21,685 nt of DNA from a phage. How positions within the stretch are numbered: position 1 is the first letter of the stretch; each line of letters opens with the position of its first letter. Position numbers and translations under genes: made by a program. The notes under the pieces were generated by a model, which saw nothing but the letters and a program-made list of their open reading frames with translations, was not told the DNA's origin and ran no database searches. The stretch lies in assembly GCA_037431425.1 (NCBI GenBank), contig GCA_037431425.1_4129.5. One strand, given 5' to 3'. Shown here one piece after another: positions 6,601 through 14,146 of this stretch.

Positions 6601-6619
6601 ACAAAAGGACTTGACAAAA

Positions 6620-6928
6620 ATGACTATGACCGTTAAACTACTAAACATCAATAACATTGGCCCAGTACTAGCCGTTCTACAAACTGATTCCGCTGAAGCT
6701 GTTGTAGTTAACTACCCAGCACAACTCGGAACTGACGAAAATGGTGAAATCATTCTTCGTGATTATCTAGAGTTTGTCAGTATGGAGAAAAATGTTATTT
6801 TTTATAAATCCAACATTATTAGTGTTAGTGATGCAAATCCTGCATTGGTTGATGCTTATGTTGATGCTATTAAAGCAATCGAAGACACACCAAAAGTTTT
6901 CGTACCAGAGAATAAAATCATTGTATAA
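6620..6928 (+). CDS. hypothetical protein
   Basis: ORF track 6611..6928. ATG 6620 follows AAGGA (6604-6608). Confidence 0.55.
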   Translation: MTMTVKLLNINNIGPVLAVLQTDSAEAVVVNYPAQLGTDENGEIILRDYLEFVSMEKNVIFYKSNIISVSDANPALVDAYVDAIKAIEDTPKVFVPENKIIV

Positions 6929-6940
6929 TAGAGGTATAAA

Positions 6941-7318
6941 ATGGCTGCTAATGACGTTAAAGTAAAAACTATTCAAGCTATCGTAGTACTGAAAGATTCA
7001 ACTCCATCTCCAAAAGAATTGGTAATGGCTGGAATGACAATGCTTCATCAATACAATCCTGAATCACCAAATTATGTTCAAGAATACGAAGCAAAGCAGT
7101 TTAAAGTACATTGGCAGTCATGGATTAAAGATAATGAAATGGAGCAGGTCGTCTATGCTGCTGATGACATTTTTGAATTAGAACAAATTGAATATCTGGC
7201 AGGTCAACAATCAGTTCCATTGAGTATTTTTGGTAATGGTGAGGAAGTTTTAGTTCTAGGTCCATTCACTGCCGATGTAATTACACACTTACTAAGTAAT
7301 TGTGAAAAAATTGGCTAA
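6941..7318 (+). CDS. hypothetical protein
   Basis: 125-aa ORF with AGAGG SD upstream. Confidence 0.6.
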   Translation: MAANDVKVKTIQAIVVLKDSTPSPKELVMAGMTMLHQYNPESPNYVQEYEAKQFKVHWQSWIKDNEMEQVVYAADDIFELEQIEYLAGQQSVPLSIFGNGEEVLVLGPFTADVITHLLSNCEKIG

Positions 7319-7359
7319 ATGCTTAAAATTATCAGGATACCGAAACAATACATTGATGT

Positions 7360-7373
7360 TAAATAATATAAAG
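7360..7373 (+). promoter_or_regulatory. late-promoter-like motif TAAATAATATAAAG
   Basis: 14-mer identical to 14495-14508 (upstream of tail tube gene). Contains TATAAAG, close to the T4 late-promoter core TATAAATA. Confidence 0.3.
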
Positions 7374-7534
7374 TATTGGGTTGACCCATACTTTAATAAT
7401 TCATTGTTAATGTACAGAGATAAAAGTCGAGATTTATACGGAATATATGTTACGCAGTTAATATATGCTATAGATTCAGAACATTTTACTCCGTTGGTAT
7501 ACCTGTACTGTCTTTATAATTCCAAATAACTATT

Positions 7535-7579
7535 AGCACCTCTAAATAATGTATATAAACATTAATGAGGTGCTTTTTT
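7535..7579 (+). terminator. hairpin + T-run overlapping the RBS of the next gene (terminator and/or translational regulator)
   Basis: AGCACCTC (7535-7542) pairs with GAGGTGCT (7567-7574); the 24-nt loop has an inner AATGT/ACATT palindrome; TTTTT 7575-7579 runs into ATG 7580. The 3' arm contains the GAGG Shine-Dalgarno. Confidence 0.4.
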
Positions 7580-8371
7580 ATGTCTTACGATTATATGGGT
7601 GGAAACCCAGATGCTCCTAACTTTGACCATCGTGAAAAACTGAAAGATGTTATCACTCAAATGTTGGGTGCAGGGGCTGTTGAGGTAGAAATTACTGATG
7701 GTCAATTAGAAATTGCAATTGATAATGCTGTATCAAATTACAGAGCGTGGAGTTCTGCTTCTAAAGAAGAAGCATTTTTAAATATGAAATTCTATGATTC
7801 ACAATCTGTATATATGCTCCCAACTGAAGTTGAAATAGTTAAAAAGATTTACCGCTATGGTAATGGTTATTTAAGTTCTGGGTCAGGTAACAGCGTAGAC
7901 CCATTCTCATTGGCATTCACAAATACATATCTATTGACTTCGGCTAGGAATGCAGGTGGATATGATTTAACAACTTATGATTTCAGTTTTCAATTTCAAG
8001 AATTGGTTGGTCGTATGTTTGGACGTGAAATTATATTCCAATTTAACCCAATGACTAAGAAACTTATTATTGACCGTGATATTCGCGGTACAGAAGAAGT
8101 TCTACTACATGTGTATCATAATATTCCAGAACCATTATTGTTCCAACGTCAGCAAAGCTACCCGTGGCTTCGTGATTGGGCATTGTCTGAAGCAATGATT
8201 ATGCTTGGTCGTAACCGTGCTAAGTTTGCTAGTTTGCCTGGACCACAAGGGACATTTTCAATGGATGGTGATACATTAAGAAATGAAGGTATCCAATTAC
8301 AAGAACAACTAAAAGAACAGTTGAAGCGATATAAAGATGGTGGAGAACCACTTGGAATGATTATCGGGTAA
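7580..8371 (+). CDS. hypothetical protein, possibly virion (neck / tail-completion) protein
   Basis: ORF track 7565..8371. ATG 7580 is 9 nt after GAGG; the 7565 ATG lies inside the hairpin. Structural role inferred only from position near sheath/tube genes. Confidence 0.65.
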   Translation: MSYDYMGGNPDAPNFDHREKLKDVITQMLGAGAVEVEITDGQLEIAIDNAVSNYRAWSSASKEEAFLNMKFYDSQSVYMLPTEVEIVKKIYRYGNGYLSSGSGNSVDPFSLAFTNTYLLTSARNAGGYDLTTYDFSFQFQELVGRMFGREIIFQFNPMTKKLIIDRDIRGTEEVLLHVYHNIPEPLLFQRQQSYPWLRDWALSEAMIMLGRNRAKFASLPGPQGTFSMDGDTLRNEGIQLQEQLKEQLKRYKDGGEPLGMIIG

Positions 8372-8397
8372 ATTTTAAACATCAAAAAGAGTACTAT

Positions 8398-10392
8398 ATG
8401 AATAATGAAGAATTGAAAAAACTTTTGTTGTCAAAACATATTAATTCATGGGTACATTTATACAAAGGGGACTCTCATGTGAGGGATCTCCTTTCTATTT
8501 TTGGAATAGAACCAAAAACTGATTTCGAAATATATAAAATTCTATATATGTTCATGAATGATATATCAACAATCCCAACTGCATATTGCGGAAAAAAAGC
8601 AAGATATAAAAATTTTCAAAAAGGATTTTATAAATTTTGCGATGATTATATTATTAATAAAAAAAATACATGTAATGTATGTCATGAAATGTATTATAAA
8701 AATCGAACAAATAAAACAAAATCAACATTAATGGGTATGTATGGTGTATCTAATGTGTCCCAGATCCAAGAAGTAAAGAAAAAGAAAGAAAAAACTAACA
8801 TGGAGCGTTATGGTGTTTCTACTAATTTACAAACATCAGAATCTAAAGAGAAAATCAAACAAACTAATATAGAGCGTTATGGATGTGAATATCCAAACCA
8901 AAACCCTGAAATATTTAATAAAGTAAAAGAGACAAATTTAAAAAAATATGGTGTTGAATTCCAAAGTAAAAGAAATGAAGTAAAAGAGAAAGCAAAAAAT
9001 ACAAATATCTTAAAATACGGTACTGAGTACTCTTTATCATCACCGACGATTCGTGAAAAAATCAATAAAACAAATCTTGAACGATATGGTGGTAACCCAC
9101 TATCAAATAAAATTATCCAAGATAAAATAAAAAATACCAATATATTGAAGTATAATTCATTTTATCCAATGAGCAATTTGGATGTTCAGAAAAAAGTTCA
9201 TAATACAAATGTGGAAAGATATGGTGTAAAACACCCATCCCAGAATAATTCTATTATTGAAAAAATGAAAGAAACCACAAAAAATAGATATGGGGCTGAA
9301 CACTACTCACAAACTGATGAGTATAAAGAGAAAATGTCACTTGCTCATCTAGACGAAAGATATACTATAATTGTTGAAAATATTGATAAAAACTATATTC
9401 CATTATTTGAAAACACAGACCTGATGATGAAAGTTAACACCGATGAATACCCATTTTGGTGTGAATATTGTGATGATTTGTTTTATAGTAAGTACAAAAA
9501 TCATAAAGTGAAATGTAAGTGTCAGAAAAATAATGGTCATTCCTTGAAAGAGAAAGAGTTAGTTGATTATATAAAATCATTAATACCAAATATGGAAATT
9601 ATAGAAAATGACCGTTCAGTACTGAAACCTAAAGAGTTGGATGTGTGTATTCCAGAACTTAAACTAGCTATTGAATTTAATGGTGTTTATTGGCACAATG
9701 ATGAAAATATCAATTCTACTAAACATCAAGATAAGGTATTAGATTGTTTAAAACATGGTGTAAATCTTATTCACATTTATGAAGATGAATGGGATAACCC
9801 ATTAACCAATAAAATTATCAAGGAACGTTTAAAGAATAAACTTCTAGCGTCTAATAGAATTTATGCTAGAAAATGTACTGTTAGAAACATAGACAAACAA
9901 GTAAGTAATAAGTTTGTGAAATCACATCATATCCAAGGTGTTGCACAAGCAAGTATACACATTGGGCTTTACTATGGGTGCGATTTAGTTGCTGTTATGA
10001 CCTTTGGTAAATCAAGGTTTGATAAAAACTATGAATATGAATTAATCAGATACTGTTCATCTGGTACAGTTGTTGGTGGTGCATCAAAATTACTAAAATA
10101 TTTCGAAACCGTATATAATCCACAATCATTGTTGACATATGCTGATATGGATTGGAGTAATGGTAATCTTTACACGGTTCTTGGTTTTGAGTTAGATAGC
10201 TATACAGAACCTGGATATTTTTATTATGACCCACAAACGCACGAGAGAATTTCACGTCAAAAATGTCAAAAACATAAATTGATTAAGAAAGGTCACGATA
10301 TCAACTTAACCGAGAGACAAATTTGCTGTGATGTATTGGGATATTATAAGATTTACAACTCTGGTAATATAAAATACACAAAAAAATATTAA
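8398..10392 (+). CDS. modular nuclease, free-standing homing-endonuclease-like
   Basis: 664 aa. Two Cys clusters (C-x16-C-x10-C-x2-C near residues 64-95; CEYCDD...CKC around residue 350). About nine tandem ~24-aa repeats with core K-x-TN-[ILMV]-[EK]-[RK]-YG. Vsr/DUF559-like PD-(D/E)XK segment (KELDVCIPELKLAIEFNGVYWHND...HGVNLIHIYEDEW). Extra C-terminal domain of unknown fold. Confidence 0.6.
   Translation: MNNEELKKLLLSKHINSWVHLYKGDSHVRDLLSIFGIEPKTDFEIYKILYMFMNDISTIPTAYCGKKARYKNFQKGFYKFCDDYIINKKNTCNVCHEMYYKNRTNKTKSTLMGMYGVSNVSQIQEVKKKKEKTNMERYGVSTNLQTSESKEKIKQTNIERYGCEYPNQNPEIFNKVKETNLKKYGVEFQSKRNEVKEKAKNTNILKYGTEYSLSSPTIREKINKTNLERYGGNPLSNKIIQDKIKNTNILKYNSFYPMSNLDVQKKVHNTNVERYGVKHPSQNNSIIEKMKETTKNRYGAEHYSQTDEYKEKMSLAHLDERYTIIVENIDKNYIPLFENTDLMMKVNTDEYPFWCEYCDDLFYSKYKNHKVKCKCQKNNGHSLKEKELVDYIKSLIPNMEIIENDRSVLKPKELDVCIPELKLAIEFNGVYWHNDENINSTKHQDKVLDCLKHGVNLIHIYEDEWDNPLTNKIIKERLKNKLLASNRIYARKCTVRNIDKQVSNKFVKSHHIQGVAQASIHIGLYYGCDLVAVMTFGKSRFDKNYEYELIRYCSSGTVVGGASKLLKYFETVYNPQSLLTYADMDWSNGNLYTVLGFELDSYTEPGYFYYDPQTHERISRQKCQKHKLIKKGHDINLTERQICCDVLGYYKIYNSGNIKYTKKY
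8716..9351 (+). repeat. in-frame tandem array of ~9 degenerate 69-75-nt repeats inside the nuclease gene
   Basis: Translated repeats: MGMYGVSNV.., TNMERYGVS.., TNIERYGCE.., TNLKKYGVE.., TNILKYGTE.., TNLERYGGN.., TNILKYNSF.., TNVERYGVK.., TKNRYGAEH.., each followed by a variable spacer ending in EK[IMA]. Confidence 0.6.
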
Positions 10393-10398
10393 TAAAAT

Positions 10399-10426
10399 AG
10401 ACTCCATTTTTTTGGGGTCTTTTTTC
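10399..10426 (+). terminator. putative intrinsic terminator
   Basis: AGACTCC / GGGGTCT 7-bp stem (one G-U pair), 8-nt loop, then TTTTTC. Immediately after the nuclease stop. Confidence 0.5.
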
Positions 10427-10434
10427 ATATGTGG

Positions 10435-10443
10435 TGATATAAT
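10435..10443 (+). promoter_or_regulatory. extended -10 promoter element TGaTATAAT
   Basis: Same 9-mer TGATATAAT as at 4809-4817. About 32 nt upstream of ATG 10475. No good -35. Confidence 0.3.
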
Positions 10444-10474
10444 GTTTATTACATTAACGTAAAGGAATAATCCT

Positions 10475-10741
10475 ATGAATACTGAGAAGGTAATGTACAA
10501 TCGATATCGTTGTGGTAGACCAACCCTAGATTATGAATCTACTGAAAATTTCTGGAGATTTATCAAAGATTCAATTGTTGATGTTATCGGTAGAGATCGA
10601 GTAAATGCATGGGCTAGTATATATCGTGACAATAATGGTGAGACATTTTTCATCACATATGTTTCTGTGTATGACAAAAACGAGATGGTTGTGGATTTAC
10701 TTGAATGTTTAGTAGGGAAAGATTTAATAGAAATTGTATAA
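10475..10741 (+). CDS. hypothetical protein
   Basis: 88-aa ORF with AAGGA SD upstream. Confidence 0.55.
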   Translation: MNTEKVMYNRYRCGRPTLDYESTENFWRFIKDSIVDVIGRDRVNAWASIYRDNNGETFFITYVSVYDKNEMVVDLLECLVGKDLIEIV

Positions 10742-10759
10742 AATACATGGAGTAGTATA

Positions 10760-11386
10760 ATGGGAAGACAAATAATTGCAATCAATGGAACTATTGGAAG
10801 TGGGAAAGATACTTTTGCTAAAACATTCATTGAAAATGGATATACAAAAATGTCATTTGCGACCAATCTAAAAGATTCGGTTGCTTCTATTTTTGGTTGG
10901 GATCGTGAAATGCTTGAAGGAACTACCAAGGAAAGTCGAAAGATTCGTGAAGAGCCAGATCAGTACTGGTGTAAAAAGATGGGACGTGATGATGTTTCAC
11001 CTCGTTGGGTACTACAAAATTACGGAACTAATATTTTACGTAAGTATTTTCATAATGATATCTGGGTATTTAGTTTAGAAAAAACAATGCAAGAAATTGA
11101 TGGAAATATTATCATTACTGATTGTCGTTTCCCAAATGAATTAAAAATGATTAGATCACAAAACGGAACTATTATTGAAGTACGTCGTGTACTTCCACAT
11201 TGGTATGGTCTAGCGGCATCATATAATAAAAGAAATATTTCTATTAAACCAGTAGAACTTGAAACAGTCCATGAATCTGAATGGGCTTGGATTGGAATAA
11301 ATTATCCTGATATTATTGTACATAACAATGGTACGCTAGAAGACTTACAGAAAAAAGCATTGGAGATTATTTACTCTAATATGTAA
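10760..11386 (+). CDS. P-loop deoxynucleoside monophosphate kinase (T4 gp1-like)
   Basis: Walker A INGTIGSGKDT at the N-terminus. Overall pattern resembles T4 gene 1 dNMP kinase (SGxxxSGKDT ... ITDCRFPNE). GGAG 7 nt upstream. Confidence 0.55.
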   Translation: MGRQIIAINGTIGSGKDTFAKTFIENGYTKMSFATNLKDSVASIFGWDREMLEGTTKESRKIREEPDQYWCKKMGRDDVSPRWVLQNYGTNILRKYFHNDIWVFSLEKTMQEIDGNIIITDCRFPNELKMIRSQNGTIIEVRRVLPHWYGLAASYNKRNISIKPVELETVHESEWAWIGINYPDIIVHNNGTLEDLQKKALEIIYSNM

Positions 11387-11443
11387 AATATAAACAATAA
11401 AGACTGGTCATTTAAATCCTTCAATAAATAAGACTATACGAAT

Positions 11444-11451
11444 ATAAATTT
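11444..11451 (+). promoter_or_regulatory. late-promoter-like TATAAATT
   Basis: TATAAATT 32 nt upstream of the sheath ATG; one mismatch from the T4 late consensus TATAAATA. Confidence 0.3.
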
Positions 11452-11482
11452 CGAACAACCAATTATTTTTGGAGGATTTAAT

Positions 11483-14146
11483 ATGGCAGGAGATCTACTC
11501 TCACCTGGCGTGTCTATCTCAGTAACTGATAACAGTATGAGTACTGCTGCTGCTCCTGGCACAGTACCACTATTTGTAATTGCTACTGCTGAAGACAAAC
11601 TTGTCCCTGGCAGCAACGCAATTGCCACTGGAACTACTAAAGCAAATGCAGGTAAATTGCAGCTTTTGACATCACAAAAAAGTTCACTTGATACCTACGG
11701 TACACCAATTTTCCAAACGAATAACGGATCTGTTGTACAAGGAGATGAACTAAACGAATATGGTCTACATGCAGTATATTCATACCTAGGAATTACCAAT
11801 CGTGCTTATGTAATTCGTGCTGATATCGACCTAGCACAACTTGCACCACGTGCTGAAGCTCCAACTGGTCCAGTATCCAATGGTACTTTGTGGTTTGATG
11901 CTGCACAATCGCAAGTTGAAGCATATGTAGCTAAAAAAGATAGTCCAAGTAGTTTTTATGATTGGCAACTTAAGCCAGTAACTTTTGTTAGTGCAGAAGA
12001 AATTGATGATGTAAGCCTAGTAGGTTTAAATGTTGATGATTTAGTTCTACGTTATAAGCCAAGTAATGGTCAGATGTTAATGTATAAGCGTACTGCTTCT
12101 GGTTTGGTTCAAATGGAAACCTACTTATCCCCAATTAACAAAGTTCCAGTAGGCCCAACAGTAGAAAAAGGTAACATTTGGATTCGTGATGGATATACAC
12201 AAAACGGTTCTAACTATTTTGGTACTCGTTTTGTTATTAAACGTTATGCATCGTTAACTCAAGTTTGGAATGTTGTACCAACATACACAGGTAATTCATT
12301 TCAAGAAATCGAAGCGAAAAGTGGAGTACTAAACAATAGTTATATCGCATCTCGTTTTGATGAAGATAGTAAGAGTTTCTCTTTCTATATCCAAAGTGCT
12401 AAACTATCAACTATTAGTGCACCAGCGTTGCCATTAGGTGAAACTATCATTGAACAAGCTGGTGATGATAGTTACATGACATTTACTTACTTGAATAAGT
12501 CAGTGAAAGTACTAGCAGTGCCGAATGGTGGTGTTATTAATACACAAACTATCATCAATAATCTGAATTCTAATGCTGAAGTGATTAACGATGGTTTCAA
12601 ATTCAAACGCGAAGCAAATGGTAGTTTAGTTGTTTCTAATATTAAAGGATATAGTTTCAAAATCACACAAAGTGGTGATGACATTTTTGCAGAAGACGAA
12701 CTACAAAAACTAACTGTAAACAGCAACAACTACTCTCAAATTAATATTAAAAACTTTCGTGTCAGTGAATCCGTACCGCGTAATATCGCAAAAGATGGAA
12801 CTTTGTGGTATGATTTCGGAAACTCAGATAATCTAACTGTCACTCTATATGTGGCTGATGTGGCAAATGACAAATGGGAACTTGTACAAGATGAAAACAA
12901 ATATGTACAAGTTGATGAGCCAGCAGCAGACCGTACAATTTGGGTATGCCCACTATCACAAGGTGTTGATGGTTATGAATTCTATCGCAATGTTGATGGG
13001 GAGTGGGTTAAGCTTGATAACACTGATCAAAGCACCCTAAATGGCATGGTTTTCCACGATTTTAATATTCCATCCACTGTTCCAGCAGCAGCATTATATC
13101 AAAATGGTATGTTGGCTGTTGATTTAGGCAACACTGAAGGTGTTGTTAAAAAAATGGTTAATGGTCAATGGGAAGTTGTTAGTGGTGTAAGTATTGATGG
13201 TGCTGGCTTGTTTGGTCGTGCTGCACAACGCAAACTAGTTGTTGAAGCTTTGGCTGCTGTCATTGTAGGCAATGATGAAATTCGTTCTGAATTTATTGAT
13301 TTTAACCTAATTTGTGTACCTGGGTATGTCGAAACACTATCTGATTGTGTAACACTAAACACTGATCGTAAAGAAACTGCATTTATTGTTACCGATGTAC
13401 CAGCACGTTTAGATCCAACTGGAAATGGTAGTGCCGTACAGAAATGGGCAACCAATGCAAATAATGCACCAACTAATGGTCCAGTGGGTAGAACAACTGC
13501 ATATGATTATGCTGCTCAGTATATGGGTTGGTGTTTAAGTACCAATGTTGACGGTATGGAAGTTGCTGTACCTGGAAGTACTATTGCTATGCGTACATAT
13601 GCATACAGTGATAGTGTAAGTTATGTATGGTATCCACCTGCTGGTACAACCCGTGGTGTTGTAACTAATGCTGCAAGTACTGGTTTTATTAATAGTGAAG
13701 GTGAATATCAACCAGTCGTATACAATCAAGGTCAACGTGATGTTATGTATACTAATAACATTAACCCAATTGCGATGCGACCTAATCGTGGATTGTTGGT
13801 ATATGGTGATAAAACACTATCTGCTAACCAAACTTCCGCTTTAAGCCGTGTTAACGTAGCTCGTTTGGTTGTTTATATTCGTCGCCAGCTAGAAATTATT
13901 TCTGAACCATTCCTATTCCGTTTGAATACACCAAGTACTCGTCAGGAATTCAGTGGTGTTGTGAATAGTTTCCTAGCTGAAATTGTACAACAACAAGGTC
14001 TATATAACTTTGCTGTAGTTTGTGATGAAAGCAACAATACTTCTGAACGTATTGATCGTAATGAACTATGGATGGATATTGCAATCCAACCAACTAAGTC
14101 TATCAACTTCATTTATGTACCAATTCGTATTGAGAAGACTCAATAA
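11483..14146 (+). CDS. contractile tail sheath protein (T4 gp18 family)
   Basis: 887 aa. N-terminus MAGDLLSPGVSISVTD matches T4 gp18 MTLLSPGIELKET. C-terminus VVCDESNNTSERIDRNELWMDIAIQPTKSINFIYV matches gp18 VVCDTTNNTPSVIDRNEFVATFYIQPARSINYITL. Strong GGAGG SD. Confidence 0.9.
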   Translation: MAGDLLSPGVSISVTDNSMSTAAAPGTVPLFVIATAEDKLVPGSNAIATGTTKANAGKLQLLTSQKSSLDTYGTPIFQTNNGSVVQGDELNEYGLHAVYSYLGITNRAYVIRADIDLAQLAPRAEAPTGPVSNGTLWFDAAQSQVEAYVAKKDSPSSFYDWQLKPVTFVSAEEIDDVSLVGLNVDDLVLRYKPSNGQMLMYKRTASGLVQMETYLSPINKVPVGPTVEKGNIWIRDGYTQNGSNYFGTRFVIKRYASLTQVWNVVPTYTGNSFQEIEAKSGVLNNSYIASRFDEDSKSFSFYIQSAKLSTISAPALPLGETIIEQAGDDSYMTFTYLNKSVKVLAVPNGGVINTQTIINNLNSNAEVINDGFKFKREANGSLVVSNIKGYSFKITQSGDDIFAEDELQKLTVNSNNYSQINIKNFRVSESVPRNIAKDGTLWYDFGNSDNLTVTLYVADVANDKWELVQDENKYVQVDEPAADRTIWVCPLSQGVDGYEFYRNVDGEWVKLDNTDQSTLNGMVFHDFNIPSTVPAAALYQNGMLAVDLGNTEGVVKKMVNGQWEVVSGVSIDGAGLFGRAAQRKLVVEALAAVIVGNDEIRSEFIDFNLICVPGYVETLSDCVTLNTDRKETAFIVTDVPARLDPTGNGSAVQKWATNANNAPTNGPVGRTTAYDYAAQYMGWCLSTNVDGMEVAVPGSTIAMRTYAYSDSVSYVWYPPAGTTRGVVTNAASTGFINSEGEYQPVVYNQGQRDVMYTNNINPIAMRPNRGLLVYGDKTLSANQTSALSRVNVARLVVYIRRQLEIISEPFLFRLNTPSTRQEFSGVVNSFLAEIVQQQGLYNFAVVCDESNNTSERIDRNELWMDIAIQPTKSINFIYVPIRIEKTQ

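Follow-up and report, generated by a model that had tools for sequence, protein, structure and literature searches.

A probable Hef-family homing endonuclease gene with a Mom-like domain, inserted behind the neck gene of an Asteriusvirus jumbo phage

What is the gene for a large modular protein doing among the structural genes of a jumbo phage, and how did it get there? The gene lies in a 21,685-nucleotide (nt) stretch of phage DNA (GenBank assembly GCA_037431425.1, contig GCA_037431425.1_4129.5), hereafter called the window, and encodes 664 amino acids (aa). The window is of the Escherichia jumbo phage ph0011 type (Asteriusvirus, 348 kb), with 99.7% nucleotide identity over positions 7000 to 12000. 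The corresponding ph0011 protein, WAE77138.1, is 99.8% identical to the 664-aa protein and is annotated as an "endonuclease domain-containing protein." An earlier note, made by a model from the sequence alone, had proposed a free-standing, homing-endonuclease-like insertion between a virion gene and the kinase and sheath genes. We confirmed the open reading frame (ORF), which starts with ATG on the plus strand, and its position as described there (Table 1). The proposed insertion is borne out by a Hef family match, a Vsr-like site, presence and absence among close relatives, and a patch of the kind left by co-conversion. We conclude that the gene is likely a Hef-family homing endonuclease gene of the free-standing kind.

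The earlier note had recognized no named family. However, the gene is a member of the named Hef-like family, which is already annotated in public records. Residues 230 to 664 match positions 111 to 535 of the 536-position PHROG 3339 profile, "homing endonuclease," with an E value of 8.4e-164. The C-terminal half, which comprises the nuclease and the Mom-like domain described below, is 37% identical to U5 Hef (ABI48935.1) over 268 aa (BLASTP, E = 4e-41). U5 Hef falls into the same 90%-identity cluster as a 530-aa homolog encoded between nrdA and nrdB of the T4-like phage vB_EcoM_G8. Cleavage by Hef has been reported for the nrdB region, as cited in PMC2988022. The protein collection holds more than 3,300 homologs, and 438 phage records have one or more copies. 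The carriers include Campylobacter phages (10 to 12 copies each) and LIMEstone/ViI-like, PA5oct-like, Lak, and RaK2-like phages. Most homologs are annotated as "Hef-like homing endonuclease," and some as "nuclease/acetyltransferase." There are 3 to 12 paralogs per genome, and every one has a Mom-like domain of its own beside a divergent array presumed to bind DNA; ph0011 carries three.

Free-standing homing endonucleases of this type include U5 Hef (Sandegren et al. 2005), F-LimIII/VII/VIII/X of LIMEstone1, and the Hef-like genes of Campylobacter phages. The window gene shares with them membership in PHROG 3339, a free-standing and intergenic position, multiple copies, and a sporadic distribution. 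The window protein and U5 Hef have in common the nuclease and Mom-like homology and the same repeat motif. However, the window protein has nine DUF7487 repeats and a longer N terminus, whereas the U5/G8 protein has about 2 to 3 repeats and a length of 530 to 544 aa. The loci also differ, because the window gene lies between the neck and dNMP kinase genes and the U5/G8 gene lies between nrdA and nrdB.

Other profile searches bear on the name as well. The NUMOD, HNH, Vsr (PF03852), and DUF559 profiles of Pfam gave no match to the 664-aa protein at E ≤ 1. DUF7487 was the one Pfam family above threshold, with MTES_1575 and Mom below it, and the single NCBIfam match (XF1762, E = 0.056) was judged meaningless. 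The protein also matches phrog_559, "HNH endonuclease," end to end over aa 88 to 663 (E = 2.9e-77). This label looks wrong for the Hef-like family, because the 664-aa protein has no HNH motif and no Pfam HNH match.

We built an AlphaFold2 model on 88 homologs (mean predicted local distance difference test score, or pLDDT, of 91.9) and counted residue conservation over these homologs. The family profile matches the catalytic domain of I-Bth0305I (PDB 3R3P) with an E value of 9e-7, and Hef-type enzymes were assigned by Taylor et al. 2011 to the Vsr-like "EDxHD" homing endonuclease family (PMC3239194). The Vsr-like segment proposed in the earlier note is thus present. The conserved residues of the domain are E385, E413, D415, E426, N428, H433, H443, and K446. 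D415 and K446 are invariant (88/88), E426, H433, and H443 occur in at least 86 homologs (H433 in 87), E385 occurs in 74, and N428 occurs in 63, with Asp in another 20. Four of the five EDxHD positions (E385-D415-N428-H433) are kept as in I-Bth0305I, and the final Asp is replaced by H443. The Vsr-type active site is conserved, with its catalytic residues intact. The window protein differs from I-Bth0305I in having an extra C-terminal GNAT domain, and the gene is not intron-encoded. The presumed DNA-binding part of the protein consists of zinc (Zn) ribbons and DUF7487 repeats, whereas EDxHD relatives have NUMOD or helix-turn-helix (HTH) modules.

The gene forms a clean insert at its locus. It follows a T4 gp13-like neck/head-tail adaptor gene (7565 to 8371, PHROG 211), and a small conserved ORF, the dNMP kinase gene, and the sheath gene come after it in that order. 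The inserted segment contains only a 23-nt leader with a ribosome-binding site and the ORF, and it lies precisely between the neck stop codon and the neck-gene terminator. In gene-less phages, the terminator hairpin (GGACTCC...GGAGTCC plus a T run) comes within about 10 nt after the neck stop, and the conserved TGATATAAT motif comes next. Of about 35 Asteriusvirus genomes, a megablast search with the neck-to-sheath region showed the gene in no more than three records, namely ph0011, UE-S1, and TH47. About 30 other Asteriusvirus genomes, including 121Q, PBECO4, slurp01, G17, EC.P1, and A4, match both flanks and have an empty site, with pieces that span about 2.97 kb instead of 5.0 kb. The Eneladusvirus genomes (Yersinia phage fHe-Yen9-04 and Serratia phage BF) have the neck gene, small ORF, kinase gene, and sheath gene without an extra gene.

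TH47 and its near-twin EC.P1 offer a comparison of genomes with and without the gene. TH47 has a segment of about 2.0 kb here that has no EC.P1 counterpart. Over 11 kb, TH47 is 98 to 100% identical to the gene-less EC.P1, but only 73 to 90% identical inside a patch of about 4.0 kb that surrounds the gene and has sharp borders at about 7250 and 11275 in window coordinates (Table 1). The patch consists of the 2.0-kb gene with about 1.15 kb upstream and about 0.88 kb downstream. Compared with UE-S1, the pattern is reversed, with 92 to 100% identity inside the patch and 66 to 95% elsewhere. We then took the sites that distinguish EC.P1 from UE-S1 as informative and scored which type TH47 carries. 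To the left of the patch, 482 sites were of the EC.P1 type and 13 of the UE-S1 type, and to the right the counts were 543 and 8. In the flanks inside the patch, the counts were 22 EC.P1-type against 155 UE-S1-type sites upstream and 8 against 158 downstream. Therefore, TH47 is an EC.P1-like genome carrying a UE-S1-like patch of about 4.0 kb. Over 48 kb, 114 of 193 250-nt windows of TH47 are at least 98% identical to EC.P1, and the patch is the longest contiguous run of divergent windows. These sequence comparisons show that TH47 acquired the Hef-like gene recently by lateral transfer, so that at least one transfer into a near-identical genome took along about 1 kb of flank on either side. A patch of this kind is what double-strand-break repair would be expected to leave when flanking markers are co-converted.

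The window allele has a different boundary. Its upstream block (about 6980 to 8550) is 95 to 100% identical to UE-S1, and the remaining gene is about 93% identical. Its downstream flank, at 72 to 89% identity, is no nearer to UE-S1 than to gene-less phages. Therefore, recombination breakpoints cluster at the Hef-like gene. Breakpoint clustering at nuclease genes has been described in other phages by Barth et al. 2023.

We also examined two other TH47-only insertions of about 1 kb. One contained a free-standing nuclease gene different from the Hef-like gene, and the other contained a LAGLIDADG intein. Mobile nuclease elements account for the main structural differences between TH47 and EC.P1. 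The first insertion, of about 1.06 kb (TH47 MT446416.1, 30431 to 31498, minus strand), is immediately upstream of the gene for the CCA tRNA nucleotidyltransferase. Its product of 355 aa has a treble-clef Zn finger (DUF4379, E = 1.7e-7), a CapR-like match below the Pfam cutoff (E = 0.002), and a C-terminal PD-(D/E)XK-like motif, "DFYLVDYDICIEYDGKQHF," and the insertion is probably a further homing nuclease gene of the free-standing type. EC.P1 lacks this insertion, and so does the window, in which 3536 to 3670 is only a 135-nt gap; the flanks of the insertion are locally diverged (0.90 to 0.92 identity). The second is the intein, of about 1 kb (CYSFDTEF...HGN|C), in a 758-aa RlaP-like nucleotidyltransferase gene (TH47 44684 to 46960, minus strand); it is missing in the EC.P1 ortholog.

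The C-terminal domain had been left unassigned, and we found that it is a Mom-like GNAT domain. Among PDB structures, Foldseek ranks phage Mu Mom (8BV8, E = 1.4e-6) highest, ahead of generic GNATs. An hhalign comparison of the domain profile with a profile of more than 100 Mom homologs aligned 120 columns with a probability of 93% and an E value of 3e-7. The single-sequence alignment to Mu Mom was weak (probability 20%), so that the match is convincing only with the Mom family profile. The Pfam Mom profile (PF25680) scores 21.1 bits against a cutoff of 27.1 (E = 2.6e-4), covers profile positions 2 to 50 only, and misses the gathering score; one homolog, P0018, reaches 32.4 bits for the whole protein, above the cutoff. 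The domain is related to Mom and may work like it, but it falls short of strict Pfam membership. A literature search found no paper linking "Hef-like" with acetyltransferase.

Mu Mom carries out a tRNA-Gly-dependent modification of adenine N6. Silva et al. 2026 found H58, R111, S124, D149, and Y159 of Mom to be active-site or essential residues (PMC13219725). These pair with H511, R551, S563, D583, and Y592 of the window protein, which thus keeps five of the seven residues that have been proposed for the Mom active site. H511, R551, and Y592 are invariant among the homologs, S563 occurs in 71 of the 88, and D583 occurs in 65, with Asn in 16. However, the essential Mom R151 is D585 here (Arg in 34 of the 88), the important Y59 is I512, and the dimer residue W48 is Gln. 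U5 Hef has the opposite pattern, with Arg at the R151 position and Asn at the D149 position, where the window protein has Asp. Because the window protein has lost the R151 equivalent and U5 Hef the D149 equivalent, Mom-type chemistry should not be taken for granted. The HTH-like insertion of Mom (residues 175 to 209) is needed for activity. The hhalign alignment ends at Mom residue 179, and the model of the window protein has helices at aa 620 to 646 between the last strands. Mom stands alone, whereas the Mom-like domain of the window protein is fused to a nuclease.

The replaced residues, namely the last EDxHD Asp (now His) and Mom R151 (now Asp), could be taken as signs of decay. We compared the three Asteriusvirus alleles. 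All are intact 664-codon ORFs. The ratio of nonsynonymous to synonymous substitution rates (dN/dS) is about 0.10 overall and 0.02 to 0.15 across all domains. It is 0.07 to 0.15 in the repeat, nuclease, and Mom-like domains (0.07 to 0.14 in the nuclease and 0.07 to 0.08 in the Mom-like domain). Purifying selection thus acts on every domain. The His residue at position 443 occurs family-wide (86 of 88 homologs) and is no private lesion. We rejected a decaying, inactive homing endonuclease relic on the intact alleles and the low dN/dS, and we regard it as extremely improbable.

Several points weigh against a homing endonuclease. The 664-aa protein has no recorded cleavage activity or target site. 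H443 aligns with D222 of I-Bth0305I and D97 of Vsr. The TH47 patch shows gene-centered recombination but leaves the nuclease as its initiator unproven, and Asteriusvirus genomes are mosaic in general. Finally, all sampled RaK2-like Klebsiella phages (Alcyoneusvirus) have an ortholog at the same position between the neck and kinase genes. The RaK2 ortholog is 55.6% identical to the window protein, compared with 70 to 80% for neighboring genes. This fixation and this level of identity would also fit long residence or domestication. The structural context is thus conserved in RaK2-like phages, but nuclease-fold matches exist and the catalytic residues are intact, so that the conditions under which the earlier note would have been refuted do not apply. 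The RaK2 ortholog is labeled "homing endonuclease" in the public record.

A domesticated former homing gene, no longer mobile, might serve in anti-restriction adenine modification or late DNA processing, for example. Fixation at one site in all sampled RaK2-like phages, strong purifying selection in all domains, and the late-gene context beside neck and tail genes would suit such a role. We consider it improbable. About 30 of 33 Asteriusvirus genomes lack the gene, as does Eneladusvirus, and it is therefore dispensable; moreover, TH47 gained it recently by lateral transfer. The sampled RaK2-like genomes are also nearly clonal (97 to 100% identical to one another in the interval between the neck and kinase genes), so that fixation among them is weak evidence. 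Between the RaK2 ortholog and the window protein, the Mom-like domain is most conserved (65.7% identity) and the repeats least (48.5%). This divergence fits a fast-evolving element whose putative DNA-recognition part diverges most. The RaK2 data are equally compatible with ancient residence and with repeated invasion of the same site. In RaK2 (NC_019526.1, stretch 7968 to 10622), the dNMP kinase gene directly follows the Hef-like gene. The small ORF between the neck and kinase genes of Asteriusvirus and Eneladusvirus (phrog_34967) is missing in RaK2-like phages.

The fusion of a Mom-like domain to a nuclease has also been read in another way. Iyer, Anantharaman, Krishnan, Burroughs, and Aravind 2021 described fusions of jumbo-phage Mom domains to nucleases of the restriction endonuclease (REase) fold as restriction-modification-like, without mention of homing (PMC7824862). 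The sporadic distribution, the TH47 patch, and the homology to U5 Hef tie the Hef-like family to homing. These Mom-REase fusions and the Hef-like proteins are probably one family, because the domain description agrees, as does the count of five copies in PA5oct-like phages. As a single-chain conflict module, the protein would modify adenines in the phage's own DNA and degrade unmodified DNA of the host or of a superinfecting phage, with defense or competition as its primary role instead of homing. That model was stated for just such fusions, and the "five momylating enzymes" of PA5oct match the five domain copies in the PA5oct-like phages MIJ3 and Paride. The five kept Mom active-site residues, the low dN/dS of the Mom-like domain, and its high conservation in RaK2 agree with this role. 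However, 3 to 12 paralogs with divergent arrays suit site-specific elements better than a single genome-wide mark, and most close relatives lack this gene copy. The founder, Hef, behaves as a site-specific homing enzyme. The Asp in place of Mom R151 here and the Asn in place of D149 in U5 Hef also speak against it, and a PADLOC search gave no match. We consider a conflict module unlikely, though a real possibility; it overlaps in part with homing.

The predicted DNA-binding part is built of two Zn ribbons and a repeat array. The two Cys clusters of the earlier note proved to be these ribbons (Table 1), and C64, C81, and C92 of the first are at least 90% conserved. The N-terminal helical region has no significant Pfam match. 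The note had counted nine tandem repeats of about 24 aa and likened them to NUMOD repeats. The number holds, but the period is 23 aa (22 in one repeat, the first starting at aa 101), and the repeats are DUF7487 (E = 5e-40, 138.2 bits against a cutoff of 27). The repeat core is K-x-K-x-T-N-x-x-(R/K)-Y-G, in which K6, T10, and Y15 are invariant, N11 occurs in seven of the nine repeats, and G16 occurs in eight. In the DNA, the nine repeats share only about 49% identity and escaped detection by Tandem Repeats Finder. They are ancient, with no recent expansion. The AlphaFold2 model has ten helices over about aa 93 to 328, that is, nine repeat helices and one long closing helix, and the array modeled alone has a pLDDT of 95.7. 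The array is net basic (43 Lys and Arg versus 29 Asp and Glu) and is presumed to bind DNA from its location between the two Zn ribbons, where other homing endonucleases carry DNA-binding modules. A PDB profile search found no sequence relative of the array among solved structures, and a literature search found no mention of DUF7487.

We suggest the following scenario for a homing element. Late transcription of the neck gene would run on into the Hef-like gene. The protein may bind a long target with its pair of Zn ribbons and its helical array of nine repeats, and the Vsr-like domain, probably as a dimer like I-Bth0305I, would cut a gene-less co-infecting genome in or near the interval between the neck and kinase genes. 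Recombinational repair from a gene-carrying genome would then copy the gene together with its flanks. In this scenario, the TH47 cleavage site must lie within, or be compatible with, the tract from 7250 to 11275. The Mom-like domain may modify an adenine within or close to the target of the element itself, which would spare the carrier genome, or it may be a base-flipping or dimerization module for the nuclease. Every paralog keeps a Mom-like domain beside a divergent DNA-binding array. This favors a role tied to each enzyme's own site (self-protection, base flipping, or dimerization) over a genome-wide protective mark.

Hef itself has reportedly been found by Sandegren and colleagues to cut both Hef-carrying and Hef-less DNA. 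Substrates for in vitro cleavage are usually made outside the phage and so lack phage modification. Therefore, cutting of both DNAs is compatible with protection by modification.

The leader and its surroundings are in keeping with read-through. A scan of the 26-nt leader found no promoter-like site. Some T4 homing genes carry hairpins that sequester the ribosome-binding site; a search for such a hairpin in this leader found none, and the leader shows less structure than its shuffled controls do (z = +2.1). We therefore infer that the Hef-like gene is co-transcribed with the neck gene by read-through of the late neck transcript. The earlier note had given the gene its own terminator. However, the same terminator directly follows the neck stop in gene-less relatives, and the hairpin at 10399 to 10420 thus belongs to the neck gene. 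An own promoter and an own terminator were both rejected. The TGATATAAT motif is probably a promoter for the downstream small ORF and kinase genes.

Table 1. Coordinates of the Hef-like gene, its predicted domains, and associated features in the window
Feature	Coordinates	Strand	Basis or remark
TH47/UE-S1 patch of about 4.0 kb (window equivalent)	7250..11275		Absent from near-twin EC.P1
Neck stop-to-ATG spacer, 26 nt	8372..8397	+	AAGAG Shine-Dalgarno-like motif
Inserted segment, 2,019 nt relative to gene-less Asteriusvirus	8375..10393	+	Junction alignments with 121Q, PBECO4, EC.P1, and A4
Hef-like homing endonuclease ORF (probable)	8398..10392	+	ATG start, 664 aa
N-terminal four-helix region, aa 1-55	8398..8562	+	AlphaFold2 model, pLDDT >90
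Zn ribbon 1, aa 61-95 (C64, C81, C92, C95)	8578..8682	+	Predicted beta-hairpin
Nine 23-aa helix-turn repeats, aa 101-306	8698..9315	+	Pfam DUF7487
Zn ribbon 2, aa 350-376 (C355, C358, C373, C375)	9445..9525	+	Predicted beta-hairpin
Vsr-like (EDxHD-type) PD-(D/E)XK nuclease domain, aa 380-483	9535..9846	+	Alpha/beta in AlphaFold2 model
Mom-like GNAT domain, aa 484-664	9847..10389	+	Alpha/beta; Foldseek and profile-profile comparison
Intrinsic terminator, hairpin (10399-10420) plus T run	10399..10426	+	Resident neck-gene terminator, outside the insert
Extended -10-like motif TGATATAAT	10435..10443	+	Kept in all seven Asteriusvirus genomes compared; resident

Base composition was considered as a sign of foreign origin and rejected. 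The GC content of the Hef-like ORF is 28.6%, compared with 34.2 ± 3.1% for the other ORFs, but GC at third codon positions is no different, and the lower GC content is therefore due to amino acid content. Scans of the window for tRNAs and Rfam families gave no matches.

Upstream of the structural genes, the window holds a cluster of translation- and RNA-related genes (1247 to 7318, ph0011 annotation). They encode an HPF/RaiA-like ribosome hibernation factor, a CCA-adding enzyme, a Nudix hydrolase, a glutaredoxin, a macro-domain protein, and a peptidyl-tRNA hydrolase-like protein. The ORF at 2029 to 2412 (127 aa, TTG start) has no PHROG match, and the region from about 2040 to 2710 cannot be aligned to 121Q or UE-S1, which indicates a strain-specific replacement. 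Two ORFs that overlap by 14 nt (2713 to 3126 and 3113 to 3535) both match phrog_20693 (E = 1.6e-60 and 1.9e-53) and resemble a tandem duplication of a gene with no assigned function. In the macro-domain gene (6121 to 6600), the 3' part from 6285 to 6484 is a local hypervariable patch, which is 56 to 66% identical to 121Q and UE-S1 in surroundings of 85 to 98% identity.

The Hef-like gene resembles the Seg and Mob genes of T4 in its intergenic place beside conserved genes, the lack of its own promoter, the co-conversion of flanks, and its presence or absence among close relatives. However, the catalytic domains are unrelated, being GIY-YIG or HNH in the T4 enzymes and Vsr-like in the window protein, and the T4 enzymes have no modification domain.

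The gene call itself is ordinary, because a Hef-like gene had already been deposited. What is new is the residue-level mapping of Mom in a bona fide homing endonuclease family, a natural homing footprint in EC.P1, TH47, and UE-S1, and a DUF7487 array without a solved analog. The before-and-after pair of EC.P1 and TH47, together with the donor-like UE-S1, delimits the co-conversion tract and provides ready substrates for mapping the cleavage site. Two literatures, one on homing endonucleases and one on Mom-REase fusions, probably concern a single protein family, and U5 Hef, its sole biochemically characterized member, carries the Mom-like domain. The tRNA-dependent chemistry of Mu Mom was solved in 2026 (PMC13219725), so that what the Mom-like domain does in a homing enzyme can now be tested directly. 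The DUF7487 array, which is predicted with confidence, could represent a new type of modular scaffold for binding DNA.

A bolder proposal, which we offer as speculation and hold to be doubtful, is that Hef-family elements are self-immunizing gene drives. The Mom-like domain would act as an acyl- or aminoacyl-transferase that marks an adenine at the element's own site, and DUF7487 would be a new modular array that reads DNA. If this is true, the marked carrier would be spared and unmarked gene-less genomes would be cut, which would make the element a mobile, single-polypeptide, site-specific "restriction-modification" system. The number of DUF7487 repeats (about 2 to 3 in U5 Hef and 9 here) would then set the target length, and the marking may be tRNA dependent, like that of Mu Mom.

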